Source: a virus. Taken from it: 64,000 nucleotides of DNA. The notes under the pieces are model-generated. The model had not been told where the DNA came from and did not search any database. It worked only from the letters and a program-made list of their open reading frames with translations. The stretch lies in the IMG/VR virus record IMGVR_UViG_3300002026_000020. One strand, 5' to 3'. Shown here in pieces: positions 26,821 through 42,353 of the stretch (the stretch's first letter is position 1; each line of letters starts with the position of its first letter). The translations under genes and the position numbers were made by a program.

Positions 26821-26823
26821 TAT

Positions 26824-26951: not shown

Positions 26952-27371
26952 ATGACTACATGCTTACATTGTGGAAAAGAACTTGTAATACATAAAGACA
27001 AAAATAAAAAGTTTTGTAACAATAAATGTCAGCAAGATTATCAATATGAACAAAAAGTAAAGTTATGGAAAGATGGAAGGCTAAAGGAAACCAGCGGTGA
27101 TTATCAAATAGCAAGAACTATTCGCCGGTATCTTTTTGAAAAACATGGTAATAAATGTTGTGAATGTGGTTGGGATAAAATAAACCCGATAACTGGTAAA
27201 TGCCCGTTAGAAGTTGAACATATAGATGGAAACCATGAAAATAATAAAGAAGAAAACTTAACTCTTCTTTGTCCAAATTGTCATTCATTGACTCCTACCT
27301 ATAAAGCATTGAATAGAGGAAAGGGTAGAAATCAAAGGATGAAAAGGTATAAAGAAGGAAAAACATTTTAG
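26952..27371 (+). CDS. HNH homing endonuclease
   Basis: LEVEHIDGNHENN..ENL.LLCPNCH. Confidence 0.9.
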   Translation: MTTCLHCGKELVIHKDKNKKFCNNKCQQDYQYEQKVKLWKDGRLKETSGDYQIARTIRRYLFEKHGNKCCECGWDKINPITGKCPLEVEHIDGNHENNKEENLTLLCPNCHSLTPTYKALNRGKGRNQRMKRYKEGKTF

Positions 27372-27374
27372 AAT

Positions 27375-27472
27375 GCTGCTTTAGCTCAGTTGGTAGAGCA
27401 ATAGTTTTGGTTGACTGAAATCAACTTCCAGTAAACTATAGGTCGTCTGTTCAAGTCAGACAAGCAGCACCA
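27375..27472 (+). tRNA. tRNA-Thr(TGT) with 22-nt insertion (27409-27430) in the anticodon
   Basis: Canonical D and T arms; ATAGT-TTT[GGTTGACTGAAATCAACTTCCA]GTAA-ACTAT. Confidence 0.8.
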
Positions 27473-27573
27473 GTGTCTCTTTGTTTCTCACCTTGCATAC
27501 AGGAGCATCCCTCAAGATGACTCAAACATGGTGTTGTTTCCTTTCGACATTATCAAAGAAAAGAAACAGGTAT

Positions 27574-27649
27574 AGGCGGTTAGTATACTAGGTGTTTACA
27601 TTCGTCTGTTAAACGAAAGAAGGTGGTTCGAATCCACCGCTGCCTGCCA
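27574..27649 (+). tRNA. tRNA-Asn(GTT)
   Basis: TTCGT-CTGTTAA-ACGAA, G73, CCA. Confidence 0.85.
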
Positions 27650-27654
27650 AGCAT

Positions 27655-27743
27655 TGAAGAGTACCCGAGTGGTAGCAGGGGTCTGACTGTTAATCAGAAA
27701 GCAGAAATGCTCGCCGTAGGTTCGAATCCTACCTCTTCAGCCA
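27655..27743 (+). tRNA. tRNA-Asn(GTT) with long variable arm
   Basis: TCTGA-CTGTTAA-TCAGA; AGCA-GAAA-TGCT variable arm. Confidence 0.85.
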
Positions 27744-28110
27744 AAACAAAGCTGGATAAACAATCCGCCCTGCCAACCTTCACCTGTCCTCGTAGGGGAT
27801 AGTAAACTTCTCTCCAGCATCCGAAAGGATTTGAGGGGTTAGTAAAGGTAAAAGACCTTCCGTAGTAGCCGAGCGTGTCGGCGGCGGAGCACCATTTCAA
27901 CGGATACGATGAATCCGACAGCCGCAATGGGCTGTGAAAATTAGTTGCTGGGTATAGAAGTATCTACTCAGCGGCAACCAACGAGCCATCACCGAGAACT
28001 TTAGCTGAGAGGCAAAGCGTTTCACTCATAAAAAGAAACCAGCTTCACCATTTTTGGATTACTGTGATATAATGGGTATAAATACTTTGTAGCAAAGGAG
28101 ATTTACCCAC

Positions 28111-28644
28111 ATGACAGAAAATCATAGAAAGCTAGTTGAAGCAAATTGTATTCATTGTAATAAAATAATACTAACCAGACCGGATAGAGTAAAAAAGTTT
28201 TGCTCAAAACTATGTAAAAAAATACATAGAAATGTTGAAGTGAAATGCACCAATTGTGGTAAATTAACTCTAAAGAAAAAATCGGCTCTTGCCAATTCAA
28301 AACATGAAATATATTTTTGTAGTAGAGAGTGTAAAGATTTCGCTCAAAGTATCAAGGGTGGTTGTGAGATAATAAGACCTTCTCACTATGGAAATGGTGG
28401 TTTACATTTTTACAAAAGCCTAATAAATAAAACTGACAATCCTAAATGTTGCGATTGTGGTGAAACAAAAAGATATACATTATGTGTTCATCATATAGAT
28501 AGTGATCGTGAAAATAATTCAGTAGATAATTTAGAAATAGTTTGTGCAAATTGTCACATGAAAAGACATCTAAAACTTATAGATGGTGAGTGGCAATATG
28601 GCGCAAAGTATCTTACACCAAGAGAAGATTTAAAAATCATATAA
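28111..28644 (+). CDS. HNH homing endonuclease
   Basis: VHHIDSDRENNSVDNLEIVCANCH. Confidence 0.9.
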   Translation: MTENHRKLVEANCIHCNKIILTRPDRVKKFCSKLCKKIHRNVEVKCTNCGKLTLKKKSALANSKHEIYFCSRECKDFAQSIKGGCEIIRPSHYGNGGLHFYKSLINKTDNPKCCDCGETKRYTLCVHHIDSDRENNSVDNLEIVCANCHMKRHLKLIDGEWQYGAKYLTPREDLKII

Positions 28645-28645
28645 T

Positions 28646-28721
28646 GGGGGCACATGTACCTCGCAGGCGAACCGCACTTGCAATGCAGTTGTGATGGGTT
28701 GAATCCCCATTGTCTCCACCA
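28646..28721 (+). tRNA. tRNA-Ala(TGC), atypical D arm
   Basis: G3:U70 pair, GCA-CTTGCAA-TGC, CCA. Confidence 0.7.
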
Positions 28722-29040
28722 TTTTTCAGTAGAAGCAAATCGTAAGGTACGGCATACATAAACAAATAAGGGTATGCTGGGAGCGGCGACACCAAGCCAG
28801 GGTCTATGCAATAGGCAACACTACATTCAATATAGTAGTTGTGTAAATAAAAACACTAAAGTCACTTTACGGTGGGAAGCCTTAGTGGGTGTGGAGAAAA
28901 TCTCCTTTATTGAGCCTAAAAACTCTAAGCCCTATGGTTGTACTTTGTCGTGACGAGGGTAATCCCATAGGGGAATATCCCAAGTTTAGGCTTCGAACAG
29001 CGGTGTCCACGCGACCAACCCGGCTGACTGAAAACCATTT

Positions 29041-29465
29041 AGGTGTGTAGTATGTGTCGTATAAATGTGTTTGGCGATGCTCAGTCGTTTCATCCTGCTT
29101 GTTTGGATGGGCGGCACCACAATGGACACAGCGATGTAAACCAAACACTGCGCCAGTAAGTACGCAGGGCTACCAGCCCTCGAAGAGTAGAGTATGTGCG
29201 CCTCTATCGCTTACGCTTCGGGGTTTGTTCCCGAAAGTCACACCCAAACCCATTTTTGTTTACCATGTGTGTCGTATAATGTTCTGTGCGAAGTCCGGCG
29301 AAATGACCATCACGGCTCCTGTGAGTCGATAAAGGGTGGTCATCTACCCTCAAAATGTAATAAAGACACAGTAAGCATAGAACAGCGCAGCCAGTACAGC
29401 GGTACTTTTAATTCCGTAGGAGTAGAGTATGTGCGCCTCTATCACAAGGCATGGTAAACAAAAAC
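29041..29465 (+). ncRNA. Two tandem copies of an unknown pseudoknotted RNA motif
   Basis: Shared TGTGTCGTATAA, GACACAG, GCCAGTA and GAGTAGAGTATGTGCGCCTCTATC, with covarying stems. Confidence 0.65.
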
Positions 29466-29471
29466 ATTCAT

Positions 29472-29603
29472 GTGGTGGTCGTAATAATGAAACGAAGTAA
29501 AGACTGTTATCTAAGTAAGTCTTGAAGAAACCGTTTCGTGGAAGTTACAATACGCGGCAATGCAATCGCTGAGATGCTGGTTCGAGTCCAGCCCACCACT
29601 CCA
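29472..29603 (+). ncRNA. tRNA-like RNA (acceptor and T arm with large insert)
   Basis: GTGGTGG/CCACCAC-T-CCA and GCTGG-TTCGAGT-CCAGC. Confidence 0.6.
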
Positions 29604-29742
29604 TTACAGTGTATCACACGCCTGTCAACTTGACTGGCATGGTGGGAAAAATAAGTATTGATAAATAAAAATACCCTCTACAATAGAGGCATGAGCAACG
29701 AAAGAAGCTCGGTTGACAAATATATATGAGTAGCTTGAATAT

Positions 29743-29817
29743 GGGTTGCAAGCATTAGGGCTGATGCAATGGTCTTTTAAACCATGGAAGTAGGATCGAC
29801 CCCTACGCGACTCACCA
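29743..29817 (+). tRNA. tRNA-Lys(TTT)
   Basis: ATGGT-CTTTTAA-ACCAT, CCA. Confidence 0.85.
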
Positions 29818-29922
29818 TAAGAGATTACAGGACAACTCTCTATAAACACTGTACCATTTAGCGAATACAGAAATCAGTTTCGGGTACTAGACATAAATCC
29901 GTCAACAAAAACAACCAATCAC

Positions 29923-29999
29923 GCGCCTAGTGTTCGCCGGTTGTGGACGGTGGTCTTATAAACCATTCTGAGGGTGTTCAACTCACCATAGGCGTACCA
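29923..29999 (+). tRNA. tRNA-Ile(TAT)
   Basis: GTGGT-CTTATAA-ACCAT, CCA. Confidence 0.8.
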
Positions 30000-30147
30000 T
30001 TTTGTAATCGTTGAAGAAGAGGATAGCGCAACTCATAGAACCTTCGGGGGAGAGTTGCCGTATCAATGCGATTCCTTCATTCAACCGTGTTCTCCAGCGG
30101 AACCCGATAACATTGATACGAGTTGCATCTGGATATACAACTCACAT

Positions 30148-30225
30148 GCACCCATCGTCTAACCCGGCTCAGGACAGGAGACTTTCATTCTCCCGATTGG
30201 GGTTCAAATCCCCATGGGTGTACCA
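30148..30225 (+). tRNA. tRNA-Glu(TTC)
   Basis: GGAGA-CTTTCAT-TCTCC, CCA. Confidence 0.9.
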
Positions 30226-30284
30226 TATGACGAAGTTTGTTGGTTTGATACTCAGAGCTAATTAGATAGCGAAACCAACATCAT

Positions 30285-30359
30285 GCTCTATTAGAACAGT
30301 GGCTAGTTCATTCGGCTTTCAACCGAAAGAAGAGGGATCGAAACCCTTATAGAGTACCA
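30285..30359 (+). tRNA. tRNA-Glu(TTC)
   Basis: TTCGG-CTTTCAA-CCGAA, CCA. Confidence 0.85.
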
Positions 30360-30402
30360 AGTGTAAACGCATAAACCCTATCTGGCGGTAGGTGGCACGC
30401 AT

Positions 30403-30477
30403 CGCGGGGTGGAGAAGTGGTAACTCGCTTGGCTCATAACCAAGAGAACGCAGGTTCAAATCCTGCCCCCGCAACCA
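30403..30477 (+). tRNA. tRNA-fMet(CAT), initiator-like
   Basis: CGCGGGG start with C1:A72 mismatch, CTCATAA loop. Confidence 0.9.
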
Positions 30478-30506
30478 TACAAGTCGAGACACATGTCTCG
30501 CAAATT

Positions 30507-30580
30507 TGCGCGGTGGTGTAACGGTAGCATAATAGCCTCATAAGCTTTTGATCAGGGTTCAAATCCTTGCTGCGCTCCCA
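30507..30580 (+). tRNA. tRNA-Met(CAT)
   Basis: AGC-CTCATAA-GCT, CCA. Confidence 0.8.
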
Positions 30581-30803
30581 TTGAGTCTTCTTTCATAACG
30601 AGGGTAGTAGTCTCGTTGTAGTTTCTTTGACTGAAAAAGAAACGCTATACTAACATCTGGTGCCGGGAAAGTGAATGTGGCGTGAGCCAACCTTTGCCGA
30701 GATTCACCACCTTTTATCCCTCCAGCCTCTTCACAATGCAGAAACGGAGACTTGAAAAAACAAGTATCGCTCATAGGGAACGATGAGTGTGGGAGCCTTT
30801 TAT

Positions 30804-30879
30804 GCGTCAATAGCTCAGTTGGTAGAGCGGAACTTTTCCAAAGTTCGGGTCGCAGGTTCAAATCCTGTTTGACGCTCCA
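30804..30879 (+). tRNA. tRNA-Gly(TCC)
   Basis: GAACT-TTTCCAA-AGTTC, U73, CCA. Confidence 0.92.
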
Positions 30880-30938
30880 TTTAAAATAGTTCAATAGTCA
30901 AGTATCGAACTAATATAAATATATGGTATAATATATTT

Positions 30939-31589
30939 ATGTTCTATACCATCTACAAGATAACAAACCGAGTAAACAACAAGATTTATGTCGGCAAACA
31001 TCAAACCGAAACCCTTGACGATTGTTATATGGGTTCTGGAACTCTTTTACTTAGAGCGATAGAGAAGTATGGTATTGATAAGTTTGATAAAGAAATACTA
31101 TATGTATTTGACAATGAAGAACAAATGAATAATATGGAAAAAGAAATTGTCAACGAAGAGTTTTTACTAAGGGAAGATGTTTATAACTTGAAGGTTGGTG
31201 GTGACGGTGGGTTTGGATATATAAACTCAAAAGATACCACCGAGACTACGAAAAAAGGGAGAATAGAATGTGATAAAATAATGTTGAGTAAGTATGGAGA
31301 TGATTGGAGACAAATCTTAGGGAAAAAAGCTGGCAATGCTTCGTGGGATAAACGAAAAAAGACTGGCAATATCCTTATAGGAAATCCATACTCATTCTTA
31401 GGTAAAAGACACACTGATGGAGCTAAAAAAATAATAGGGCAAAAAAATTCTATACATCAATCCGGAAATAAAAATTCTATGTACGGAATGATGTGGATTT
31501 ATAATTTAGAAACTTTAGAAAGTAAAAGGATTGGTAATAGAGAAGAAATACCTATTGGTTGGGTTAAAGGAAGAAAAATAAAAAAATAA
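30939..31589 (+). CDS. GIY-YIG (Seg-like) homing endonuclease
   Basis: TIYKITN..NNKIYVGKH..YMGSG, YNL..GG.GG. Confidence 0.9.
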   Translation: MFYTIYKITNRVNNKIYVGKHQTETLDDCYMGSGTLLLRAIEKYGIDKFDKEILYVFDNEEQMNNMEKEIVNEEFLLREDVYNLKVGGDGGFGYINSKDTTETTKKGRIECDKIMLSKYGDDWRQILGKKAGNASWDKRKKTGNILIGNPYSFLGKRHTDGAKKIIGQKNSIHQSGNKNSMYGMMWIYNLETLESKRIGNREEIPIGWVKGRKIKK

Positions 31590-31592
31590 GAT

Positions 31593-31668
31593 GCAGCAGT
31601 AACTCAGAGGCTAGAGTGCGACTTTTCCAAAGTCGATGTCGAGATTTCGAAATTCTCCTGCTGCACCA
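31593..31668 (+). tRNA. tRNA-Gly(TCC)
   Basis: CGACT-TTTCCAA-AGTCG, CCA. Confidence 0.85.
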
Positions 31669-31799
31669 GTTTCGGTTGAATATGTGGATGGGTGCCACCC
31701 TAAAAAGTCGCTTTCAACCAACCCCCTAGAAATAGGAAGTATTCACATTATTCATTGTGCTATTAGGTTCTCTTTATCCTAAGAAACAAAAAAGAATAT

Positions 31800-31875
31800 G
31801 TAGAGCAGTAGCATTAAGTAATGCACCCGTTGTTTATACGGGACTAAGTTGGTTCAATCCCAACCCTCTGCACCA
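31800..31875 (+). tRNA. Atypical tRNA, anticodon TTT (Lys?)
   Basis: CCCGT-TGTTTAT-ACGGG with G33; T arm and CCA present. Confidence 0.5.
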
Positions 31876-32381
31876 GCCAGCCCCTTGAAAAAGGGCTACT
31901 TGTGATACTACAAGGAACAGTAAGGGGATTCTGCACAGGGTTATGAGGTATCGCCAGCACCTATAGCTGGTACGAGCCGAGTAATGTTCTGTGAGTGAAA
32001 ACGCAAGGGCAGAACAGCCTGACCAGTCATTCATCTGGCAAACGGACCCAAAGTATCAAAACCATCGACGCACGATGATGAGAACAAACCTACGAGTTTT
32101 TCAGTAGTCACGAAGGATACAGATCGTATCAACTGAGTGATGAAAGGGCAGAGAAAAACTAAGCGACCTTCAAAGTAGAGTCTCCCGAGTTTCGTGCGGG
32201 TCGGATCAAACGGGATTCGGTTGAGGCTCCGCTTCTTTTTCCAACCGTGGAGGATCCCGAAGTATCGGAAATTCGAGACATGAATACACGGATACCATGT
32301 CATCTTATGTCAACCACAGCACAGAGAGTGCCACACTTCTTATAAAGAACTAAGAAAGTGTCGTAAAGGGGGTTGACACAT

Positions 32382-32458
32382 GCTCCCCTAGCTCATCTGG
32401 ATAGAGCAAATGTTTTCTAAACATTAGGTAGAAGGTTCGAGTCCTTCGGGGAGCGCCA
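32382..32458 (+). tRNA. tRNA-Arg(TCT)
   Basis: AATGT-TTTCTAA-ACATT, CCA. Confidence 0.92.
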
Positions 32459-32465
32459 TTTACAT

Positions 32466-32540
32466 TGCCTCTTAGCTCAGTGGTAGAGCGATTGACTGTT
32501 AATCAATTGGTCCGGGGTTCGAATCCCTGAGAGGCAGCCA
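32466..32540 (+). tRNA. tRNA-Asn(GTT)
   Basis: ATTGA-CTGTTAA-TCAAT, CCA. Confidence 0.93.
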
Positions 32541-32839
32541 ACCAAAAACCCTATGATGACGAGTTGTAAGTCATAGGTCGTTTATTACCATTCGCTTTAA
32601 GTAGCAGCGGCTCGCAAGAGTGGTGATGGTAATAGGTGTTATTGCCGCGAGCATCCCGCGAACAACTCTTAGGGAAGCTCCAAGTAGAAATGAACCGAGT
32701 CCAGTTGCATTCTACTTGACCTATACTGTGTATAGACGGAAATACGATTGGACCGCGAAAAGTTGGATGAAGAACGGGGACTTCACCAACCGCATAGATT
32801 TCTCCCTACCGTGGGGAGTCTAAAACATTCCCCACACAT

Positions 32840-32914
32840 GCCCGAGTAAGCTAATGAATAGACTGACTCTTTCCTAAAGAGTATATCTTGGTTTGATTCC
32901 AAGCTTGGGTGCCA
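32840..32914 (+). tRNA. tRNA-Arg(CCT)
   Basis: ACTCT-TTCCTAA-AGAGT, CCA. Confidence 0.8.
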
Positions 32915-33124
32915 TATGCCGTGTATACCACATTGGCAGAAATAGAGCAGATATCCGAATGCTGCTCAGAAGTGGGTAGCCTGTCCCAAACGACAAAACA
33001 GGGCATCGTGATTCCAGTTACCTGCGGTACAGCGGGGCATATCATGACTGGTGGATGTTGACTAATACTATATAAGGCGAAAGACAATATAAAGTCTTAG
33101 TGTGCGTACCAAACACTGCATTAT

Positions 33125-33199
33125 GCTGGATATGAACAATGGCTGTTCGGCGCTCTCATAAGGCGCTTCCAGAAGGTTCGATTCCTTCATCCAGCACCA
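33125..33199 (+). tRNA. tRNA(CAT), elongator Met or Ile2
   Basis: GCGCT-CTCATAA-GGCGC, CCA. Confidence 0.85.
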
Positions 33200-33382
33200 T
33201 TTACTGTAGGGTAGTTCAGCGGCAGATCAAATCTGAGAGGAAGCGAGAAATTGCTTCTAGGTCGCAAATAGTGACCGTTCGAGGATTGCGCGGGTAAAAC
33301 GGGCTTTGCTCGGGTTCGACTCCCCCTCTTATAGTAATCCTCTTGTGGAGTTAGTATTCTCCTACAGATAAAAATACATTAT

Positions 33383-33457
33383 GGGGGTTTGGTGATAATG
33401 GTAGCACTCGTGCTTTGCAAGCATGAAGCAAGAGTTCGATTCTCTTAACCTCCACCA
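33383..33457 (+). tRNA. tRNA-Ala(TGC)
   Basis: G3:U70, CGTGC-TTTGCAA-GCATG, CCA. Confidence 0.9.
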
Positions 33458-33628
33458 TTCAATTACGGGTTTGTGGGTTTAGATTTCCAGGCAGGCAAAG
33501 AAAACCCTCATGTTGCTTATGTCCAAGGGCGGCTCCTTGGGAGGGGCGGAATCCCCGAATGTTGGTTCGACTCCAACCGTAAGCCCGGAGCCTCGTACTC
33601 GTCACTCTGGCAACGACGAGCCTTTTAT

Positions 33629-33702
33629 GCTGTCATCGGATAATGGTATTCCGTCTGTTTCGTAATCAGAATATAGAGGTTCGATTCCTCTTGACAGCAC
33701 CA
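33629..33702 (+). tRNA. tRNA-Thr(CGT)
   Basis: TCTG(T)-TTCGTAA-(T)CAGA, CCA. Confidence 0.85.
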
Positions 33703-33717
33703 AACTAATCAAGCTAC

Positions 33718-34056
33718 TTATGTCAAACCACCAACGGTTCCTATACTTTTCTTCTTTTGTTTCTTTATTTCTTTTACTTGATACCCGTATAAGAAATGAC
33801 CATTCTTGAGATATATTATAGCTCTATCACTTTGAATAACATCAAGAGTCAGTTTATCAACAGGTTCCCCGTCTCTGTCACCCCTCTTGATCTTCTCCAT
33901 ACCAACTATTTTTTGAGCGCCGAAGTTATCACTTATAACAGTGTCACCAATTTCAACTGTTTGTGAGTTATCAAACATATAATCACCAACGGTATCAAAC
34001 ACATCTCCCAAACCTTCGTTCATTTTACTCTTCAGATAGTAAGATTTGAAACCCAT
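33718..34056 (-). CDS. Hypothetical late protein
   Basis: AGGAGG RBS and TATAAATA on the minus strand near 34070-34079. Confidence 0.7.
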   Translation of the reverse strand: MGFKSYYLKSKMNEGLGDVFDTVGDYMFDNSQTVEIGDTVISDNFGAQKIVGMEKIKRGDRDGEPVDKLTLDVIQSDRAIIYLKNGHFLYGYQVKEIKKQKKKSIGTVGGLT

Positions 34057-34145
34057 AGACGCCTCCTACCATATTTATAAAAAACACCCCTATTGCATAA
34101 TTCAGAAAACTGACATAATAGAAACATAACCAAAAGGAAAACATC

Positions 34146-34598
34146 ATGGCTCAAGTTCGCATTCGTAAGGCACTCCAGATCAAGAACCGTCTCGCTGGGG
34201 AAATCGCCAATCTCAACAAGCTCATTCAGAACAACAACTCTCATCGTGAGGGTGTGACTCAGTTCGATGTGAAGAAGCTGCTTGTTGACCGCTCCAACAC
34301 AGTTGCAAAGCTGGTTGCCGTGAAGTCATCTCTCGCTACTGCTAATGTTGCAATTTATGGGAAGCTTACTGTTCTTGCAGAACTCAAGGATGAGATTAAG
34401 TTCCTTCGTGGATTGAACACCAACTCGGGTGAGGATGAAGTTGGCTACGGCGAGCGTGCTAAGACCGTCAAGGTTGTTGCTGAAGTAACGGCAGCCGATG
34501 TTGAACTTGCAGTCACCCACTTGACACTTGAGATTGAAAAGCTCCAAGATGAAGTTGACTACTTCAACTCCACTGTCGAAATCACCATTCCAGATTGA
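34146..34598 (+). CDS. Coiled-coil hypothetical protein
   Basis: 150 aa ORF with AAGGA RBS and upstream promoter. Confidence 0.75.
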   Translation: MAQVRIRKALQIKNRLAGEIANLNKLIQNNNSHREGVTQFDVKKLLVDRSNTVAKLVAVKSSLATANVAIYGKLTVLAELKDEIKFLRGLNTNSGEDEVGYGERAKTVKVVAEVTAADVELAVTHLTLEIEKLQDEVDYFNSTVEITIPD

Positions 34599-34906
34599 AA
34601 GGGGAGTACCAGGGTAGAGGATCAGAGAAGCTTCGGTAACGCGCCCTAAAAAGGCAATTATGGCGGCTGGGAAACTAGCCACTTATACCGGTAAAGATAA
34701 TGAACGATTCTTCGGAATCAGAAAACTAAACATTCTGTTCATAAAGATTCACAAGTCATTACTCTTATATCAAAGCTCTTCAAACCGATTCTTCAAAGAA
34801 CCTCTACCCTGCGAAACCCGCTCTGTCTCACACACTTCCAACCCCTCCAAAAAAAGATTATTGAGATAATCAAAAAACCTGTTATAAATAACATTAGAGA
34901 AAAACA

Positions 34907-35008
34907 ATGAACACCTTATCCACCCAATCATGGCATCAGTCACAGCCCAGCGTATCGCGCTTGGATAGACTCGTTCCATTTATTGACAACGGGGGTTCAG
35001 GTTTCTAA
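34907..35008 (+). CDS. Attenuator leader peptide 2 (MNTLSTQSWHQSQPSVSRLDRLVPFIDNGGSGF)
   Basis: Follows TATAAATA at 34883; 33 codons; 3' end complementary to the terminator 5' arm. Confidence 0.78.
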   Translation: MNTLSTQSWHQSQPSVSRLDRLVPFIDNGGSGF

Positions 35009-35032
35009 AAGGATAAAATCCTAAAAGACACC

Positions 35033-35067
35033 GAAACCCCCTGGCGAAAACCAGGGGGTTTCTTTTT
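35033..35067 (+). terminator. Intrinsic terminator (attenuator) upstream of tRNA array 2
   Basis: GAAACCCCCTGG-cgaaaa-CCAGGGGGTTTC-TTTTT, near-identical to 25475. Confidence 0.92.
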
Positions 35068-35116
35068 GACAAGTTTATATTGTAGATTATGTTTGGGGCG
35101 GCTTCCGCCCCATCAT

Positions 35117-35207
35117 GGAAGGTAGAACCGATGTGGTATCGGAATTCTTTGCTAAAGAAATTGTTCCCTTTATTGGGAATGGAGTTCGATTCTCCCACTT
35201 TCCGCCA
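35117..35207 (+). tRNA. tRNA-Ser(GCT)
   Basis: TTCT-TTGCTAA-AGAA, long variable arm, G73, CCA. Confidence 0.85.
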
Positions 35208-35252
35208 CAAAAAGCTTGAGGATTGCTATAAACCTATTGGAATCTTCGTCAT

Positions 35253-35326
35253 GCTGCTTTCGGATAGTGGTATTCCGCTTGCTTGGTATGCAAGATACGC
35301 TAGTTCGATTCTAGCAAGCAGCACCA
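35253..35326 (+). tRNA. tRNA-Thr(GGT)
   Basis: CTTGC-TTGGTAT-GCAAG, CCA. Confidence 0.88.
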
Positions 35327-35330
35327 TTTT

Positions 35331-35404
35331 GGGTGATTAGTACAATGGTAGAACATCTCTTTGACGTAGAGAAAACGGGGGTTCGATTCCCTCATTACCC
35401 ACCA
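35331..35404 (+). tRNA. tRNA-Val(GAC)
   Basis: TCTCT-TTGACGT-AGAGA, CCA. Confidence 0.88.
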
Positions 35405-35553
35405 AAACGATATGCGAAACTGCGCTGGTGCAAGACCTGGGCTTGAGCTATAAACGCTCACGGAGTATGCCGCCTAAAACGGATGTTACGAGGAAGGCTG
35501 CCTTGGTTATTCAGAGGGGTTCGATTCCCGGGGATGACATACATATCGTGTAT

Positions 35554-35643
35554 GGAACAGAGAAGCATAGGGGATATGCGTTCGCCTGGAAAGCGAAAGG
35601 TCGCCTCACGGTGGCAGAGTTTCGATTACTCCTTGTTCCGCCA
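35554..35643 (+). tRNA. tRNA-Ser(GGA)
   Basis: TTCGC-CTGGAAA-GCGAA, long variable arm, G73. Confidence 0.85.
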
Positions 35644-35678
35644 TATTGACAATGAAAAATACGAGTTATAATACTTGT

Positions 35679-36059
35679 ATGAGCGATTATGAGAAACAAC
35701 TTGAAGAAGCTAACGAGAAGCTGAAAGGCGAGATAGAAGCTCTTCAAAAAGAAAAAGATGAGGTTGAAGAGAAGTGGAGAACCCACGAAATCTTCGATGA
35801 CAGTGAGTTGTGGTCGCTCGACTATACGATGTCTTGCTTCATCTTGCCAAGACTCAAGAAACTCAAAGACACTAAGAGTGGATATCCAAGTGAATTGGAA
35901 TCTCATGAAGAGTGGGCAGCTATCATGCAGAAGATGATAGATGGGTTTCAAGCGATAGTTGACGATGAAAGATACCCCGCAGGAAGCATGAAACAGAAAG
36001 AAACAATAGAGGCTGGGCTGAAGTTGTTTGCCGAGTATTTCCAAAACCTGTGGGATTGA
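35679..36059 (+). CDS. Conserved phage hypothetical protein
   Basis: WSLDYT..FILPRL..GYP..GL.LF..YF..LWD pattern. Confidence 0.75.
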   Translation: MSDYEKQLEEANEKLKGEIEALQKEKDEVEEKWRTHEIFDDSELWSLDYTMSCFILPRLKKLKDTKSGYPSELESHEEWAAIMQKMIDGFQAIVDDERYPAGSMKQKETIEAGLKLFAEYFQNLWD

Positions 36060-36066
36060 TGGTTAT

Positions 36067-36156
36067 GGATAGGTGGCAGAGTGGTCTATTGCGCTGGTCT
36101 TGAAAACCAGAGGGGGCGAAAGTCCTCCGGGGGTTCGAATCCCTCCTTATCCGCCA
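36067..36156 (+). tRNA. tRNA-Ser(TGA)
   Basis: CTGGT-CTTGAAA-ACCAG, canonical. Confidence 0.95.
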
Positions 36157-36267
36157 GATTTATGTTGACATGTCTTCGGAAGATAGTACCAGTCTCTTCC
36201 CCGCTTTTGCCAGTGGCTTGCGAGTTGATACGAAAAAATCAACGGACCTTACTGGATGTCAATGTAT

Positions 36268-36354
36268 GGAAGCACGGGAACATGGTGTTCAAGCTGCCTC
36301 GAAAGCAGTCCTGGGGGCTTGCTCCCAACCGTTCGATTCGGTGTGCTTCCGCCA
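36268..36354 (+). tRNA. tRNA-Ser(CGA), 8/4 structure
   Basis: GGAAGCAC/GTGCTTCC 8-bp acceptor, ACCG/CGGT T stem. Confidence 0.85.
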
Positions 36355-36533
36355 AGTCTTAGTGAGTGATACACCTTTCCTTATAAGGTGTTCGCCCTCT
36401 TGTATCCTACAGGAAGGCGCTATGATATGCGTATGAGAAAGAGATACGAGCCATAAGACTCCGTGCTAAAGACACGGCAGGCAGACCATCGAAGCCTCAT
36501 ACTTTGAAAACTATATACTGTAGATATGTTCAT

Positions 36534-36607
36534 GGGCGATTAGTACATTGGTAGTACATCGGTTTTACATTCCGAAGAAAAAAGTTCGATTCTTTTATTG
36601 CCTACCA
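36534..36607 (+). tRNA. tRNA-Val(TAC)
   Basis: TCGG(T)-TTTACAT-(T)CCGA, CCA. Confidence 0.85.
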
Positions 36608-36656
36608 TACACGGTCTTAAAATAAACTTGAGGATAGTTGACCGAAACCTCTACAT

Positions 36657-36731
36657 GCCCCGATCATCTAACGGAAGGATACTTCGCTACGAACGAAGCA
36701 ATCGCAGGTTCAAATCCTCGTTGGGGTGCCA
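36657..36731 (+). tRNA. tRNA-Arg(ACG)
   Basis: CTTCG-CTACGAA-CGAAG, CCA. Confidence 0.88.
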
Positions 36732-36801
36732 AAGAGTTAGTTGCTTGTAAAATACTCAAATCCCCCGCATGCAGGGGACAGCCGATGAACAAGCGTTTCA
36801 T

Positions 36802-36880
36802 GCCCGCGTATGCCGCCTGCCTTCTAAGCAGGAGAAAGCTAACTGGACACATGTAGGTTCAACTCCTACCGCGGGTGCCA
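36802..36880 (+). tRNA. D-armless tRNA-Arg(TCT)-like
   Basis: 7-nt linker replaces the D arm; CCTGC-CTTCTAA-GCAGG; T arm and CCA. Confidence 0.65.
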
Positions 36881-36886
36881 TTTTAT

Positions 36887-36966
36887 GCGGGTGTATAACC
36901 TCCGTCTGATAAGCGGTAGAAAGTTTAATTGGTAGCATGTAGGTTCAACTCCTATCACCCGCACCA
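36887..36966 (+). tRNA. D-armless tRNA-Ile(GAT)-like
   Basis: Same architecture; CCGT-CTGATAA-GCGG. Confidence 0.65.
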
Positions 36967-37021
36967 TTTTAAATCGAACCAAATATAAATACTATGATAT
37001 AATATATCATGGAGGTTCGAT

Positions 37022-37648
37022 ATGAGTTACGAAGACATAAAGAAGTATAGGAGAAGGTTCAAGGAAAAGATTGTAATGTTAATGGGTGGAAAATGTATGT
37101 GTTGTGGATATAGCAAGTGTATAAAGGCTATGGATTTACATCATGTTGATCCAACAAAGAAAGAATTTACTATCAGTCAAATGATCATCCTTAACTGGAA
37201 GCGTATCTTTAAAGAATGTCAAAAATGTGTTTTAGTATGTTCTAACTGTCATCGGGAGATACATGATAATGTAACACAATGCCCAGAAATGGTTGATATT
37301 AAATACGAATCACTGGCTCCAGATAGAAGAATAGATTGGGAATCACTTAACTTAGATAAAGACGCCATGACACTTAATGTTAAAGAACTCTCTAAAAAAT
37401 ACGGAATCAGTAGAACGGCAATACATAAAAAGTGTAAAGAAAGTAATATAAAACTTAAGGAAATTATACGCCCGTCAAAGTTTATAGTAGATTATGAGAA
37501 GTTGAAAAAACTTGTTACCGAAATGCCGTTTACAAAAATAGGTGATATGTATGGAGTTTCTGATAACGCAATTCGTAAAAGGTGTAAAGTTTTGGGAATA
37601 AAAATACCTAGATTTGGAAGAGGGTATTGGACTAAGAATAAACAATGA
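37022..37648 (+). CDS. HNH homing endonuclease
   Basis: DLHHVDP..KCVLVCSNCHREIH plus HTH tail (GVSDNAIRKRC). Confidence 0.88.
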   Translation: MSYEDIKKYRRRFKEKIVMLMGGKCMCCGYSKCIKAMDLHHVDPTKKEFTISQMIILNWKRIFKECQKCVLVCSNCHREIHDNVTQCPEMVDIKYESLAPDRRIDWESLNLDKDAMTLNVKELSKKYGISRTAIHKKCKESNIKLKEIIRPSKFIVDYEKLKKLVTEMPFTKIGDMYGVSDNAIRKRCKVLGIKIPRFGRGYWTKNKQ

Positions 37649-37664
37649 TATAATGAAATCATAA

Positions 37665-37760
37665 CGGCGCATAGGTCAGTCTGGTAGACCGCTTGCTTGG
37701 TGAACTAATATTCACTTCCATGGGAGCAAGAAGTCGCAAGTTCGAATCTTGCTGCGCCGA
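37665..37760 (+). tRNA. tRNA-Pro(TGG) with 22-nt insertion (37699-37720)
   Basis: CTTGC-TT[GGTGAACTAATATTCACTTCCA]TGGGA-GCAAG; C1-G72, A73; no encoded CCA. Confidence 0.8.
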
Positions 37761-37842
37761 CTCTCACCTAGAAATAGGTTGTTATTACCGTCGTTTAGTA
37801 ACTGTAAAAAACCTTCCGAAATGAAGGTAAACGGCATTTCAT

Positions 37843-37914
37843 CAGGCTGTGGGATAATGGTAGTCCACTCGTTTTGGAAGCGAGGAAAAGTTGGTTCGAT
37901 TCCAACCAGTCTGA
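37843..37914 (+). tRNA. tRNA-Pro(TGG)
   Basis: CTCGT-TTTGGAA-GCGAG; no encoded CCA. Confidence 0.8.
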
Positions 37915-37984
37915 TTCTTTCAATGGGGATGAAACGCCCCAGCCCATCACAAGCCTCTTTACAATGCTCAACCCGTGATGTCGT

Positions 37985-38060
37985 GGTCCTTTCGTATAGT
38001 GGTTTATTACATCTCCCTGTCACGGAGGAAATGCGAGTTCGATTCTCGCAAGGATCGCCA
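37985..38060 (+). tRNA. tRNA-Asp(GTC)
   Basis: TCTCC-CTGTCAC-GGAGG, G73, CCA. Confidence 0.92.
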
Positions 38061-38077
38061 TTCAGTTTCAAGGTTAT

Positions 38078-38152
38078 ACCCCCATCATATAAAGGCTATT
38101 ATGATAGATTGTCGATCTATTCATGCGGTTTCGAAATCCGCTGGGGGTGCCA
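38078..38152 (+). tRNA. tRNA-Asp(GTC)
   Basis: ATAGA-TTGTCGA-TCTAT, G73, CCA. Confidence 0.8.
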
Positions 38153-38179
38153 AAAATAAATAGTCATGGAGGTATTCAT

Positions 38180-38332
38180 ATGGAATCATTCATGATGATA
38201 TGTTCAATAGCAGCAAGCGTAACTGCTATTATCGTAAACGCTTACACAATCTTCACGATTCGTAAGCACCTTGGTAAGTTAGCCAAGGAAGGATATGAGA
38301 AGGTTGAGGATAAGATAAAAAAGATTCTATAA
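38180..38332 (+). CDS. Small single-pass membrane protein
   Basis: GGAGGT RBS; hydrophobic N-terminus and basic tail. Confidence 0.6.
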   Translation: MESFMMICSIAASVTAIIVNAYTIFTIRKHLGKLAKEGYEKVEDKIKKIL

Positions 38333-38335
38333 CAT

Positions 38336-38411
38336 GGGTTGTTGGTGTAAGTGGTCTACACGCTCGCCTGAAGAGCAAGAGAATACGGTTCGATTCCGTG
38401 ACAACCCACCA
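38336..38411 (+). tRNA. tRNA-Phe(GAA)
   Basis: Loop CTGAAGA, T arm, CCA. Confidence 0.85.
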
Positions 38412-38649
38412 TGCAAAGGAAGTATGTCTTGCTAAAAACCCCAATGGGGGTATTAGTGTAAAGGTTAGCACGCCCCCATCAAAGGGGCAGTTCGGGTTCG
38501 ATTCCCGTTTTGAGGTTTACCTCACAAGGCAAAATGAGTAGGGAGGCGACGGCTGAACGAATACTTCCGTAAGTGGATGATTGCTCGCCACTATAAAAGA
38601 CTAAGAAGCTTTGGTTCTCAGATTGCCGAATACCTTAAAGTCGGCGCAT

Positions 38650-38768
38650 TGGGGGTTCGTCTAATGGTAGGACGAGAGACTTTGCAAGACAAAGGAATCA
38701 TATGGTTCAACTCCATAGTCTTGCGCCAGGATCTCTCTGTGGGGGTTCGAATCCCTCACCCCCAACCA
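38650..38768 (+). tRNA. tRNA-Gln(TTG) with nested 45-nt mini-tRNA (38684-38728)
   Basis: AGAGA-CTTT[GCAAGAC...TATGG-TTCAACT-CCATA-GTCTTGC-G-CCA]GGA-TCTCT. Confidence 0.8.
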
Positions 38769-38825
38769 TTTTCGGTTACATATAAATAATAGTGTATAAT
38801 ATATGTAACAGATAAGGAATAGAAT

Positions 38826-39536
38826 ATGTCACAAAGAGCAAAACGAAGCATAATATGGAAAATAACAAAAGAAAATCTTATAAATGTTGTAAAGACATCT
38901 AAATCTTTTAGTGAAATACTAAAACACTTCGGTATGATAAACAAAGGTGGAAACTGTATAACTCTCAAAAAAAGATGCGGGGAGGAAAATATAGATATAT
39001 CACATATACCAATTGGTAATTCTTCTAATAGGGGGAGAAAGTTTATAAAAGACAAGACGCCATTAGAAAAAATATTAGTAGTCGATAGTAACTTTTCAAG
39101 AGTTCATCTAAAAAAGAGAATTATTGAAGAAAATATTATAGATTATAAATGTAAAAAATGTGGCAATACTGGAGAATGGCTTGGTGAGAAAATATCCTTA
39201 CATTTAGAACACATAAATGGAGTTTCTAATGATAATAGATTAGAAAATATATGTTTCTTATGCCCTAACTGTCACAGTCAAACTGAAACTTATGCTGGAA
39301 AAAACTTGCCGAGAGTAAAATATAATTGTTCTGAATGTGGAAAAGTAATAACGAAGTGCTGTAAGAGTGGGAAATGTCTCTCATGTTTGGGAAAGAATAA
39401 AAGGGTTTTCGATGCTACGAAAGAAACTTTAGAATCTCTAATAGAAACAAAACCTATGACTAAAATTGGCGAGATGTTTGGTGTTTCTGACAATGCTATA
39501 CGAAAAAGATGCAAAAAATTAGGAATATCTTTATAA
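38826..39536 (+). CDS. HNH homing endonuclease
   Basis: LHLEHINGVSNDNRLENICFLCPNCHSQT. Confidence 0.9.
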   Translation: MSQRAKRSIIWKITKENLINVVKTSKSFSEILKHFGMINKGGNCITLKKRCGEENIDISHIPIGNSSNRGRKFIKDKTPLEKILVVDSNFSRVHLKKRIIEENIIDYKCKKCGNTGEWLGEKISLHLEHINGVSNDNRLENICFLCPNCHSQTETYAGKNLPRVKYNCSECGKVITKCCKSGKCLSCLGKNKRVFDATKETLESLIETKPMTKIGEMFGVSDNAIRKRCKKLGISL

Positions 39537-39541
39537 AACAA

Positions 39542-39966
39542 TTTTTGTTGATTAGACCGAAACGTAGGCTTAGAAGCAGCCATGGAGAAATCCACATAGG
39601 GAAACTTATGCATCTAAGGAGTCCGCACACTATATGGGTTATGAGCGAGCAACCGACTGTGAGTGTTTCGAAATGTTCGCAAGAGCATATTCGAGTGAAC
39701 CGATAAAAAGGAAGACCAAGAAACGCATTCAGCCAGCGGATTGAACAACTCGTCACATTGTCGCAAGTAAGCGAACCCAACTATGAGGAAAAAGATGCTA
39801 ACAAAGGCTCGTGGCGTCGAAAGAACCAAAGCATGTTAGAACAAATCCTCTCTTGAAACCGGGAGCAAACTTTACAAAGCGTTATTACCGGCTCAAGTGG
39901 GTGTATGGTAAAGAGTAGTCAAACCAGCGGTTTAGCGTAACAGCACATCGGATAAGTCAACAAAAA
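39542..39966 (+). ncRNA. Large ncRNA containing a mimic of 23S rRNA helices 42-44 (L11/L10 binding site)
   Basis: GTAGGCTTAGAAGCAGCCAT...CTAAGGAG...AGCGTAACAGCACA; terminal helix tttttgttgatt/agtcaacaaaaa. Confidence 0.75.
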
Positions 39967-39975
39967 CAATTTCAT

Positions 39976-40053
39976 ACAGGTGCGGACTGTGGCGTAAGTC
40001 GAGAACCCTCCAAAAGTTCTGCTATTCAGGTTCGATTCCTGACACCTGTGCCA
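39976..40053 (+). tRNA. tRNA-Trp(CCA)
   Basis: GAAC(C)-CTCCAAA-(A)GTTC, G73, CCA. Confidence 0.75.
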
Positions 40054-40181
40054 AAGTAAACGTATAACTGGCGTTCTTGAGGGTTCGATTCCCTTCGCAG
40101 CCTTAGCGGGTTGTCCTCGGTGGAGGGCTGCATGCACCCAATGATGCAAGGTTCGATTCCGTGATACATTTACCCTTTTAT

Positions 40182-40306
40182 GAGAGAGTGGAGGAAATTA
40201 GTATACTCACCGCTATAAACGGCGGCGTCTCTTTGGGTGTACAACCACTGACGGAGTGATATGCTCCGTAGCAGACATGTAGGTTCGAACCCTACCTCTC
40301 TCACCA
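40182..40306 (+). ncRNA. Leu-like tRNA derivative with very large variable region
   Basis: GAGAGAG/CTCTCTC-A-CCA, T arm, abnormal anticodon loop. Confidence 0.55.
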
Positions 40307-40361
40307 TTTTTATTAGAGAAAAGTGCGATACTCGTATAAATACTAATAGGAGTATCGCACA

Positions 40362-40946
40362 ATGACAATATATCTTCTATACAAGATAATCAACAAAGTA
40401 AATGGAAAAATTTATATTGGCGCTCATCAAACTGAAAATGTTGACGATGGGTATATGGGATCCGTGAATCTCATACAAAAGGCAATAAAAAAATATGGAT
40501 TGGAAAACTTTGAGAAGCATATCATAATGTTATTTGATAATCAAAAAGATATGTACGATATGGAATCAATAATAGTAAATGAGGATTTCGTAAAGAGAGA
40601 TGATGTGTATAATATAAAAGAAGGTGGTATTGGAGGGTGGAAGCATATCCAAATGGATCCAGAGGCAAGTGAATCTCGTAAAAAAAGAGCAGGAGATTTA
40701 TTCAGAAGGTTACATGTAGAAGGTAAAATAAAGTATGACACTTTTACTGGTAGAAACCATTCGGAGGAATCTAAAATAAAAATAGGAATGGCAAATGCTA
40801 TAAAACAGAGTGGGGATAAAAATTCTAACTATGGTAAATGCTGGATATACAACGATACAGAGAAGAAGAGTATAAGTGTTCCAAAGAATGAAGTTGATGT
40901 GTGGATTACAAAAGGCTGGAAAGTTGGAAGAAAAATAAAGTGGTAA
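40362..40946 (+). CDS. GIY-YIG homing endonuclease
   Basis: LYKIINKVNGKIYIGAH..YMGS; paralog of 30939. Confidence 0.9.
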   Translation: MTIYLLYKIINKVNGKIYIGAHQTENVDDGYMGSVNLIQKAIKKYGLENFEKHIIMLFDNQKDMYDMESIIVNEDFVKRDDVYNIKEGGIGGWKHIQMDPEASESRKKRAGDLFRRLHVEGKIKYDTFTGRNHSEESKIKIGMANAIKQSGDKNSNYGKCWIYNDTEKKSISVPKNEVDVWITKGWKVGRKIKW

Positions 40947-40949
40947 CAT

Positions 40950-41025
40950 GGTGGTGTTCGTATAATGGTAGTATTATCGGTCTGTGAATCCGAGGGAGGC
41001 GGTTCGATTCCGCTACACCACCCCA
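40950..41025 (+). tRNA. tRNA-His(GTG)
   Basis: G-1:C73, loop CTGTGAA, CCA. Confidence 0.88.
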
Positions 41026-41030
41026 ATCAT

Positions 41031-41195
41031 GTTGTTTGTATGCTAAGTGGCAAAGCAGGAGGAATAAAACCGGGATGAAAGGTTGAAAACCGCCGAGAAT
41101 GAATAGTCAACTGGAAACGGGGTAGGAGAATGGCAGTATGCGCTCCTACTGACAAAAATCATTCAGTGAAGGTTCGAGTCCTTCCAACAACACCA
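41031..41195 (+). ncRNA. tRNA-like RNA with large central insert
   Basis: GTTGTT/AACAAC-A-CCA, D-like CTAAGTGGCAAAGC, GAAGG-TTCGAGT-CCTTC. Confidence 0.55.
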
Positions 41196-41270
41196 CTTTC
41201 GGATAGAGGCAGAAAAACTCCAGGGTATAAGAATGACACTGATCGTCAAACCCAAACCAAAGGAGGATGT

Positions 41271-41657
41271 ATGCTGATAGAAGAAATAAAGGATCGTAAT
41301 GACCTTCAAAACATTACCATCGCACAAGACGATGACAACGATTACGAAGAGAGTGGCTACATCGCCGTATGGGATGGGAAGAGAGCCGCAATCGCAAGGT
41401 ATTCTCACTGCTCTTGTTACGGAACGTGGACATCTTTGAACGGCGGGGACTATAGTAAGACTGGAAACGGTATTACTTGGGACTGGTTCGGATCAAAGCG
41501 TCAACTCCTAAGACTGGCTAGAGAGAAGCTTGATCCTCATGCTCCATTCGGAACCCGCAAGGCAGACGAAAAGGATTATGATTATGACCACTTGCTGAAT
41601 GTGTACCAGCAGATTCTTGAGTGGCATGAAAAGACAAAGAGGGGAAAGAAGTCGTAA
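41271..41657 (+). CDS. Hypothetical protein
   Basis: AGGAGG RBS; HCSCYG motif. Confidence 0.75.
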   Translation: MLIEEIKDRNDLQNITIAQDDDNDYEESGYIAVWDGKRAAIARYSHCSCYGTWTSLNGGDYSKTGNGITWDWFGSKRQLLRLAREKLDPHAPFGTRKADEKDYDYDHLLNVYQQILEWHEKTKRGKKS

Positions 41658-41705
41658 CTGGTAAGGTGCTTCTGAATCCGTTACACCGAAAACAACGGGC
41701 TTTAC

Positions 41706-41789
41706 GGGCAAGTGACGTTATAACGAATGGCACAGTTTGCCGTCTCAAACACGGTCGTTTTGTGGGTTCGAGTCCCACCTTGCCTACCA
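41706..41789 (+). tRNA. tRNA-Leu(CAA)
   Basis: GCCGT-CTCAAAC-ACGGT, enlarged D loop, CCA. Confidence 0.75.
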
Positions 41790-41792
41790 TAT

Positions 41793-41869
41793 GGTGAATA
41801 GTAGCATATACATGCGCTCCCTATTTGTGGGAGAATAAATATCGGTAATCAACCCGATCTTCACCGCCA
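41793..41869 (+). pseudogene. Degenerate tRNA-like cloverleaf
   Basis: GGTGAA/TTCACC-G-CCA with non-canonical loops. Confidence 0.4.
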
Positions 41870-41969
41870 GTGTCTATCACATCATCCTAACCGTGTGTGG
41901 GCGAAATAGACTCTAAACAATGCCGTTGCTATTCGCAGCGTAAGTCGGCATAGCGGTGGGACCATTTAC

Positions 41970-42062
41970 GGGGATGTGGCGAAACGGCTGAAACGCGGCG
42001 GATTTAAAATCCTCTACAGACTAATGATCACGGTGCAGGTTCGAATCCTGTCATCCCTACCA
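41970..42062 (+). tRNA. tRNA-Leu(TAA)
   Basis: GGA-TTTAAAA-TCC, long variable arm, CCA. Confidence 0.88.
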
Positions 42063-42083
42063 CTTTCACAGAAAGGAAACCAT

Positions 42084-42344
42084 ATGAAAAGAGATAGAGC
42101 GTTTCGTATAGACCAGAAGGAGAGAGTCATCAAGAACCGTAAGCGGTTGATGAAAGATACAGATTTACAACATCGTAATGAACATCAAGACAATAGGTAT
42201 AACAAGCGTCATCCATATGACTGCGGTAATCCACAGTGTCTTGTATGTCACAGTGAAAAGGTTTTCGATGAAAAGACTGTTGAAGATTTGAGAGTTGAAG
42301 ATTCATATAGGGATCAAGTAAGAGATGAGTTCGAGGGCGATTAG
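42084..42344 (+). CDS. Small basic zinc-binding protein
   Basis: AAGGA RBS; HPYDCGNPQCLVCH. Confidence 0.7.
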   Translation: MKRDRAFRIDQKERVIKNRKRLMKDTDLQHRNEHQDNRYNKRHPYDCGNPQCLVCHSEKVFDEKTVEDLRVEDSYRDQVRDEFEGD

Positions 42345-42353
42345 CCCTCATAT

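Follow-up and report, generated by a model that had tools for sequence, protein, structure and literature searches.

A candidate leader-peptide attenuator ahead of a tRNA array in a T4-like phage, with leader codons that list the tRNAs of the array

Two tRNA arrays and the leader regions ahead of them

The source virus (IMG/VR record IMGVR_UViG_3300002026_000020) is a large uncultured myovirus of the T4-like kind, and the window, the whole 64,000-nt stretch of DNA that was analysed, is one part of it. The window encodes gp5-like and gp6-like baseplate proteins and a class II ribonucleotide reductase (22990–25236), downstream of which lie two tRNA arrays, both on the plus strand. A contig with a 74% identical reductase carries genes for a T4-type portal, UvsY, UvsW and DNA polymerase B.

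Array 1 (25573–33702, plus strand) contains 23 tRNA genes, covering Gly, Glu, Tyr, Lys, Thr, Asn, Ile(TAT), Met, Arg(TCT/CCT) and Ala. Array 2 (35117–45578, plus strand) contains about 27 tRNA genes, specifically five for Ser, four for Leu, two each for Val, Arg, Asp, Gln and His, and genes for Thr, Ile, Pro, Phe, Trp and an amber suppressor, together with an RNase P RNA and homing-endonuclease ORFs; ORFs of the latter kind are scattered through both arrays. The RNase P RNA (43548–43872), a complete molecule of bacterial type A (187 bits), lies directly after tRNA-Leu(GAG). Since it sits inside array 2, it would be co-transcribed with the tRNAs whose processing needs it.

Two further RNA features of the window are recorded here. 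A phage tmRNA (49019–49385; tag DDSVTYAMAA) adjoins a gene for a PTH2-like hydrolase (48435–48944); among the relatives described below, a tmRNA is also found in L017 (13038–13397), and the hydrolase gene, with a weak Pfam PTH2 match, in L016–L018. Between tRNA-Pro and tRNA-Asp of array 2, positions 37945–37981 match the Rfam abiF RNA at 38.7 bits, against a threshold of 37 bits.

Each array is headed by a leader region, which we refer to as attenuator 1 (25272–25509, plus strand) and attenuator 2 (34883–35067, plus strand). No close cultured phage was found when phage collections were searched by DNA and by neighbouring proteins. In the DNA search of these collections, attenuator 2 returned matches to single tRNA genes only and attenuator 1 returned nothing, and the exact terminator pattern has no match in IMG/VR. 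A neighbouring 150-aa gene has no IMG/VR relative, and a neighbouring 444-aa gene is found in IMG/VR only on L001's own contig and has no match among cultured phages. Relatives were reached through a large protein collection and contig look-ups. L016 (a 174-kb JGI contig) and L017 (a 20-kb contig) carry orthologues of attenuator 2, L019 (reductase 92% identical) carries an orthologue of attenuator 1, L001, L020 and L021 (reductase 78–80% identical) carry a third leader type, and a complete 236-kb IMG/VR phage (reductase about 60% identical) carries two further units, L012 and L013, on its minus strand.

Leader, antiterminator and terminator of attenuator 2

The leader of attenuator 2 is preceded by a sigma-70-like promoter (34861–34890, plus strand), composed of TTGAGA, a 16-nt spacer and TGtTATAAA, which overlaps a T4-late-type box, TATAAATA, at 34883–34890. 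Behind a weak Shine-Dalgarno sequence, leader ORF 2 runs from an ATG at 34907 to a TAA at 35008 (34907–35008, plus strand) and comprises 33 codons plus TAA (MNTLSTQSWHQSQPSVSRLDRLVPFIDNGGSGF). Codons 3–27 make up a putative sensing stretch (34913–34987, plus strand). The last five codons carry region 2, the 5′ half of the candidate antiterminator (34991–35005, plus strand; GGGGGTTCAGGTTTC), so that region 2 would be covered by a ribosome standing at the stop codon. A spacer hairpin, AGGAT-AAA-ATCCT (35010–35022, plus strand), caps the antiterminator, and is followed by region 3 (35027–35041, plus strand; GACACCGAAACCCCC), which is positioned to pair either with region 2 or, via 35033–35044, with the 3′ arm of the terminator. 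The intrinsic terminator (35033–35067, plus strand) consists of a stem-loop that extends to 35062, with a 12-bp stem (8 G–C pairs) and a 6-nt loop, and a TTTTT tail that extends to 35067. It is the strongest terminator on the plus strand within 24000–43900 and ends 50 nt before the first tRNA of array 2. The coordinates and sequence that an earlier sequence-only reading had assigned to attenuator 2 (34883–35067), including the ORF, TATAAATA and the terminator, were all confirmed.

The predicted folds are those expected of mutually exclusive structures. Regions 2 and 3 are complementary at 12 of 15 positions, exactly as had been proposed for 34991–35005, and the RNA that lacks the terminator 3′ arm folds as the antiterminator (−24.8 kcal/mol, z −3.5); once the terminator 3′ arm is added, the predicted fold switches to the terminator. 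Region 2 is also the best complement of the terminator arm, at −21.6 kcal/mol against a median of −4.3 kcal/mol. Before region 3 is made, region 2 is predicted to be able to pair with the first leader codons.

The codons of leader 2 correspond closely to the tRNAs of array 2. Specifically, 23 codons of the stretch from codon 3 to codon 27 are read by array-2 tRNAs only, AGA is read by tRNAs of both arrays, and CCC is matched only by extended wobble, with U34 of Pro(TGG) reading all four codons. The proposal that 25 consecutive codons are decoded by array 2 therefore stands if extended wobble is allowed, but under strict wobble the run shortens to 13, and the figure of 25 depends on this one wobble assumption. 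Mapping every codon bore out the companion statement that the only leader 2 codons without an array-2 tRNA are AAC, at codons 2 and 28, and the Gly codons GGG, GGT and GGT in the pairing region.

Evaluated against the codon usage of the window, the chance of 25 or more consecutive matches within 32 codons is P = 2e-7 with extended wobble, and that of the strict-wobble run of 13 is P = 1e-3. Outside the tail, 24 of 27 codons are matched where the expected fraction is 0.53 (P = 1e-4), and the leader samples 21 of the 23 anticodon species of array 2 (P = 1e-4). In a six-frame null comprising the 645 short ORFs of the window, the run of 25 (extended wobble) takes first place, against rank 28 for the strict run and rank 37 for plain composition bias. 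The codon match is thus significant against controls, on which the sequence-only reading had made its proposal depend. Since about half of codon usage is covered by array 2, the match of attenuator 2 is by itself significant (moderate to strong) without being overwhelming, and the case is carried by attenuator 1, whose leader exceeds every other short ORF of the window in array-1 bias.

A paralogue before array 1 and units in related phages

Attenuator 1 has the same parts in the same order. Promoters TTGACA...TATACT and TATAAATA (at 25341) precede leader 1 (25373–25447, plus strand; MTTCTYNKIANKGCAEGTILGGAV), and a spacer hairpin lies just upstream of the terminator (25475–25502, plus strand). 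The last codons of leader 1 pair with CACCGAAACCCC, at −24.1 kcal/mol and z −4.6. By array-1 bias, leader 1 ranks first among the 645 short ORFs, although at the strict codon level its match is marginal against codon usage (P about 0.04–0.06). The two leaders divide the amino acids as the two arrays do: array-1-only and array-2-only codons distribute over the leaders as [[15,5],[5,25]] (Fisher P = 7e-5), and as [[12,2],[1,23]] when the last six sense codons are left out (Fisher P = 4e-7). For the two Cys codons of leader 1, a search of the arrays with ARAGORN and Rfam found no tRNA-Cys. A weak Rfam hit at 31802–31870 (ARAGORN, 31800–31875) was considered as Cys and rejected, as it folds Lys-like; another candidate, an element at 26735–26820 with a CTGCAAA loop, is odd and is not conserved in L019. 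The box 3′ of the attenuator 1 terminator (25508–25572) is present twice in tandem, each copy being about 35 nt long (TTTCTTCTTTTACAACTTTATATAAGTAGTTTGAT).

The leader ORF is intact in all of L016, L017, L019, L001, L020, L021, L012 and L013. In L016 and L017, relatives with intact arrays, it is intact and in frame, so the frameshift or loss that the sequence-only reading had named as counter-evidence is not seen there. Leader 2 differs from its L016 counterpart at 13 sites, distributed over codon positions as 1, 1 and 11 (11 of 13 at third positions), and 59 of the 60 nt upstream of the leader 2 ATG are identical in L016. The substitution pattern is the signature of a translated sequence and points to coding selection on leader ORF 2. 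None of the amino-acid replacements leaves the set served by the array (array 2, S>T, Q>L and N>T; array 1, N>K). Leader 1 of L019 ends with TAG instead of TAA.

Pairing is maintained together with the reading frame. The terminator stem of attenuator 2 shows a compensatory T–A to A–T change in L016 and L017; compared with L019, attenuator 1 has two double changes in the terminator and a change from CGGTG/CACCG to CAGTG/CACTG in the antiterminator; and L001 and L020 differ by a compensatory A–T to G–C change. These changes were read from orthologous pairs, the MAFFT rows being one column out of register in the stems. Distant units have wholly different stem sequences (CCTAGGG, CCCCGGTC and CCCATCC), with the layout unchanged. 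In all 10 of 10 attenuators (7 contigs), the best upstream complement of the terminator 5′ arm falls on the last codons of the leader, ending −2 to +6 nt from the end of the leader ORF, with energies of −14 to −22 kcal/mol against a median near −4 kcal/mol. The distance from the stop codon to the terminator arm is 22–31 nt in the ten attenuators, their antiterminator segments have z values from −3.1 to −4.6, and a spacer hairpin is found in every one; in the nine other than attenuator 2 it occupies the equivalent place with a different sequence. The second attenuator of the 236-kb phage is weaker, in that its upstream hairpin overlaps the terminator by a few bases only and the two coexist in the predicted fold. 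The promoter, the coding-selected ORF, region 2, the spacer hairpin and region 3 are thus present and conserved, which supports the attenuator reading.

The third tRNA cluster of the 236-kb phage has neither a leader nor a terminator in front of it. Rhizobium phage RHph_I1_18 was considered as a cultured example: its reductase is 47% identical, it has 27 tRNA matches, and a 16-codon ORF and a terminator stand before one of its clusters. We did not count it, because its ORF stops some 75 nt short of the terminator and the predicted structure shows no clear antiterminator.

Across lineages, leader codons are linked to array content. The best case is found in the 236-kb phage, where an array of Leu, His, Leu, Ser, Leu, Ser, Ser and Trp tRNAs is preceded by the leader MRNILESLSSSSLWHLPRRPV, which includes ...LESLSSSSLWHL... 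and the residues SLSSSSLWHL; of its 15 core codons, 11 match this array, whose tRNAs account for 15% of codon usage (P = 7e-7). Another array of the 236-kb phage has 29 tRNAs, Cys among them, and the leader before it contains 17 kinds of amino acid, with two Cys. In the L001 type, Lys(CTT) and Met are among the array tRNAs, and the leader contains three AAG and two ATG codons. When five independent families and 20 amino acids are taken together, presence in the leader core and presence in the array associate as [[33,10],[4,53]], with an odds ratio of 44 and P = 2e-13, and among 120 permutations of leaders over arrays the natural assignment comes first, by amino acids as well as by codons. The link between codons and array proposed for attenuator 2 is thereby reproduced by its paralogue and by independent lineages. 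Matched residues amount to 112 of 124 in the core versus 13 of 25 in the tail (region 2, five codons); the poor match of the tail codons is in keeping with RNA pairing, and not sensing, having shaped the tail.

Several tRNAs of the arrays are atypical. Ser(GGA) and Leu(CAA) are called only at a relaxed ARAGORN threshold, and Arg(ACG) has an additional Rfam score of 39 bits. Arg(TCT) (36802–36877) and Ile(GAT) (36887–36963) are found by Rfam only; both lack a D arm and have 4 nt in its place, and each has a stretch of 17–18 nt after the anticodon arm. L016 keeps this D-arm-less pair (3393–3468 and 3479–3555), with anticodon and T stems that have changed in a compensatory manner, which argues that both are maintained. 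The Gln(TTG) gene of the window has a 45-nt insert, which is absent from the calls for its counterparts in L016 and L017. Gln(TTG), Arg(TCT) and Ile(GAT) in their L017 forms are called by ARAGORN at default settings. The sequence-only reading took the codon match as a hint that the odd Gln(TTG) and Ile(GAT) are functional; the match lends this weak support, because the same codons occur in L017, where the tRNAs are default-called, and what adds to it for Ile(GAT) is the conservation of the D-arm-less form in L016.

Other unusual elements of the arrays are noted as observations in their own right. In three tRNAs, ARAGORN places short inserts of 22, 22 and 45 nt in or beside the anticodon loop (27375–27472, 37665–37761 and 38650–38768, respectively). 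An amber-suppressor-type tRNA(CTA) is present in the window (45505–45578) and in five relatives (L001, 16870–16942; L016, 9893–9968; L017, 9356–9431; L018, 1010–1083; L021, 17092–17164), and is the final tRNA of array 2 in the window, L016, L017 and L018. A tRNA-Ser with the unusual anticodon ACT is kept across relatives (window, 42354–42443; L001, 16642–16733; L016, 7368–7457; L017, 7464–7553; L021, 16861–16955), and the L001 leader has AGT. T-loop-like GGTTCGAnTCC motifs occur outside confident tRNAs at 26710, 26797, 29580, 33314, 33565, 35519, 38496, 40083, 40151, 40283, 41172 and 43331, which suggests further atypical tRNA-like elements; the motif near 26797 goes with the CTGCAAA loop of the Cys candidate mentioned above.

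A proposed feedback on tRNA supply, and its alternatives

The arrangement suggests that attenuator 2 is a ribosome-mediated, leader-peptide transcription attenuator that heads array 2 and is one of two paralogues, a reading to which we assign a probability of about 0.72. At the sequence level, it has a short ORF behind a promoter, an intrinsic terminator before the genes to be controlled, an alternative antiterminator and a leader enriched for array-linked codons, as attenuators of this class do. What is enriched is a roster of array isoacceptors, not a run of one codon.

In the proposed mechanism, transcription would begin at the combined sigma-70/TATAAATA promoter and a ribosome would translate the 33-codon leader. 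If decoding is fast, the ribosome would reach the TAA and cover region 2, region 3 would pair with region 4 to form the terminator, and RNA polymerase would stop 50 nt before the first tRNA. If a cognate charged tRNA is scarce, the ribosome would stall within codons 3 to about 24 and leave region 2 free to pair with region 3, helped by the spacer hairpin; no terminator would form, and array 2 would be transcribed. Since the sensing codons are a roster of the downstream isoacceptors, the circuit would amount to negative feedback on the supply of exactly those tRNAs. We infer the stalling, the direction of the switch and the share of array expression under control from the arrangement of the parts. 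When the codons of one tRNA set decode slowly, the phage probably transcribes more of that set from the promoter at its head.

The attenuator may be only one of several routes into the array. TATAAATA is the T4 late-promoter consensus and is six-fold over-represented in the window, with 23 sites against 3.6 expected. It precedes both leaders, the 444-aa gene and, at 10–45 nt, every homing-endonuclease ORF inside the arrays; examples of its sites are 26927, 28077, 30914, 36984, 38781, 40335, 42528, 43902 and 45597. Transcription likely starts inside the arrays at these boxes as well. In addition, a promoter-like box, TTGACAAsTtTATA...GTAGa (10/12 match), with a G+C hairpin at 35095–35111, occupies 35066–35111 (plus strand) and may be a second promoter that bypasses attenuator 2. 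Transcripts that start at this box or at the internal TATAAATA boxes could cover much of the array and never meet the attenuator, and the putative internal promoters limit how much of the array the attenuator would control.

The alternative that survives best accepts a real attenuator but takes it as a general sensor of amino-acid supply, charging or translation capacity, which would time array expression in infection rather than provide feedback on phage tRNAs. A ribosome cannot distinguish host from phage tRNAs, attenuators of the classical type sense charging, the TATAAATA box points to late expression, and both leaders hold codons without an array tRNA (Asn in leader 2, Cys in leader 1). 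A sensor of this kind, however, would need neither two leaders with the same division of amino acids as the arrays nor a Leu/Ser/His/Trp-only leader before a Leu/Ser/His/Trp-only array, and the sampling of 21 of 23 anticodon species by leader 2 also speaks against it; we regard it as unlikely.

The box after the terminator invites a simpler view, namely that an ordinary terminator ends upstream transcription, the array is driven by the box just behind it, and the ORF and its codons are incidental. Specifically, TTGACA-16-TATGTT lies at 35066–35093, directly 3′ of the terminator, and the hairpin follows the box where the start of a transcript would fall. Box and hairpin are kept in units of the attenuator-1, attenuator-2 and L001 types, with a hairpin sequence that varies among relatives, and array 2 reads so many codons that leader 2 reaches only rank 37 of 645 by composition. 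We nevertheless consider this view improbable, as an incidental ORF is difficult to reconcile with the 1, 1, 11 coding pattern of leader ORF 2 and its intactness in all relatives, with a region 2 that always lies on the last codons of the leader, and with leaders that follow their arrays through differently sorted lineages, leader 1 being the most extreme of the 645 short ORFs. The last alternative, that the short ORFs encode trans-acting small peptides and the nearby RNA structures are unrelated to translation, can point to amino-acid sequences conserved among close relatives but is very improbable, since no motif is common to the peptides of the different lineages, which are alike only in matching their arrays in composition, and the last codons are fixed by RNA pairing, with compensatory changes there that hold the pairing and not the residues.

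The attenuation that we favour belongs to a known class of mechanism. The leader of ilvGMEDA senses Ile, Leu and Val and the thr leader senses Thr and Ile, and trpL, hisL, pheL and leuL are their kin. Attenuator 2 resembles enterobacterial leader-peptide attenuators such as ilvGMEDA and thr in its short leader, which ends by region 2 and contains several kinds of regulatory codon, and in its mutually exclusive antiterminator and U-tract intrinsic terminator; the predicted pairing of region 2 with the first codons may correspond to the 1:2 hairpin of trp. Unlike ilvGMEDA and thr, it would control tRNA genes rather than enzymes, sense the products of its own operon and read about 20 different codons, mostly once or twice each, instead of runs for one to three amino acids. 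In E. coli, the pheM leader attenuates pheST, which encodes phenylalanyl-tRNA synthetase. Like pheM, the phage element would apply leader-peptide attenuation to a gene of the translation apparatus and read the state of tRNA, but pheM has a single codon type (Phe), controls a synthetase and shares no sequence similarity. T-boxes bind uncharged tRNA directly by RNA–RNA pairing, without translation. In T-box riboswitches too, tRNA status selects between terminator and antiterminator before translation-related genes, whereas in the phage element a ribosome would read an ORF.

The Rfam amino-acid leader families (His, Leu, Thr, Trp and Phe) give no match at the gathering score, the best sub-threshold values being 14.7 versus 49 bits for His_leader and 17.1 versus 55 bits for Phe_leader, and the T-box family RF00230 gives no match even at E up to 10. 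A full-text literature search found no published account of such attenuation control for tRNA genes. What is new is the tRNA genes as target, the roster-like leader and the product-sensing logic; the class of mechanism is itself known.

Large phages carry dozens of tRNA genes, and the reason for their presence and the way in which they are controlled are still debated. If our reading is correct, this phage regulates its tRNA supply by direct feedback from decoding speed, and classical attenuation extends from amino-acid biosynthesis to the tRNAs themselves. Starvation for Ser or His would then open attenuator 2 only, and starvation for Lys, Thr or Glu would open attenuator 1 only. More tentatively, the roster leaders might gauge decoding codon by codon, such that a loss of host tRNA, through an anticodon-nuclease defence or post-infection decay, would open the matching array and replacement tRNAs, in array 2 together with the RNase P RNA, would be made; the arrays would in that case be self-tuning, defence-responsive and separately sensed operons. 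The leaders would also predict which tRNAs share a transcription unit and flag tRNAs that standard finders overlook, as the AGA and ATT codons of leader 2 correspond to the two tRNAs that lack a D arm.
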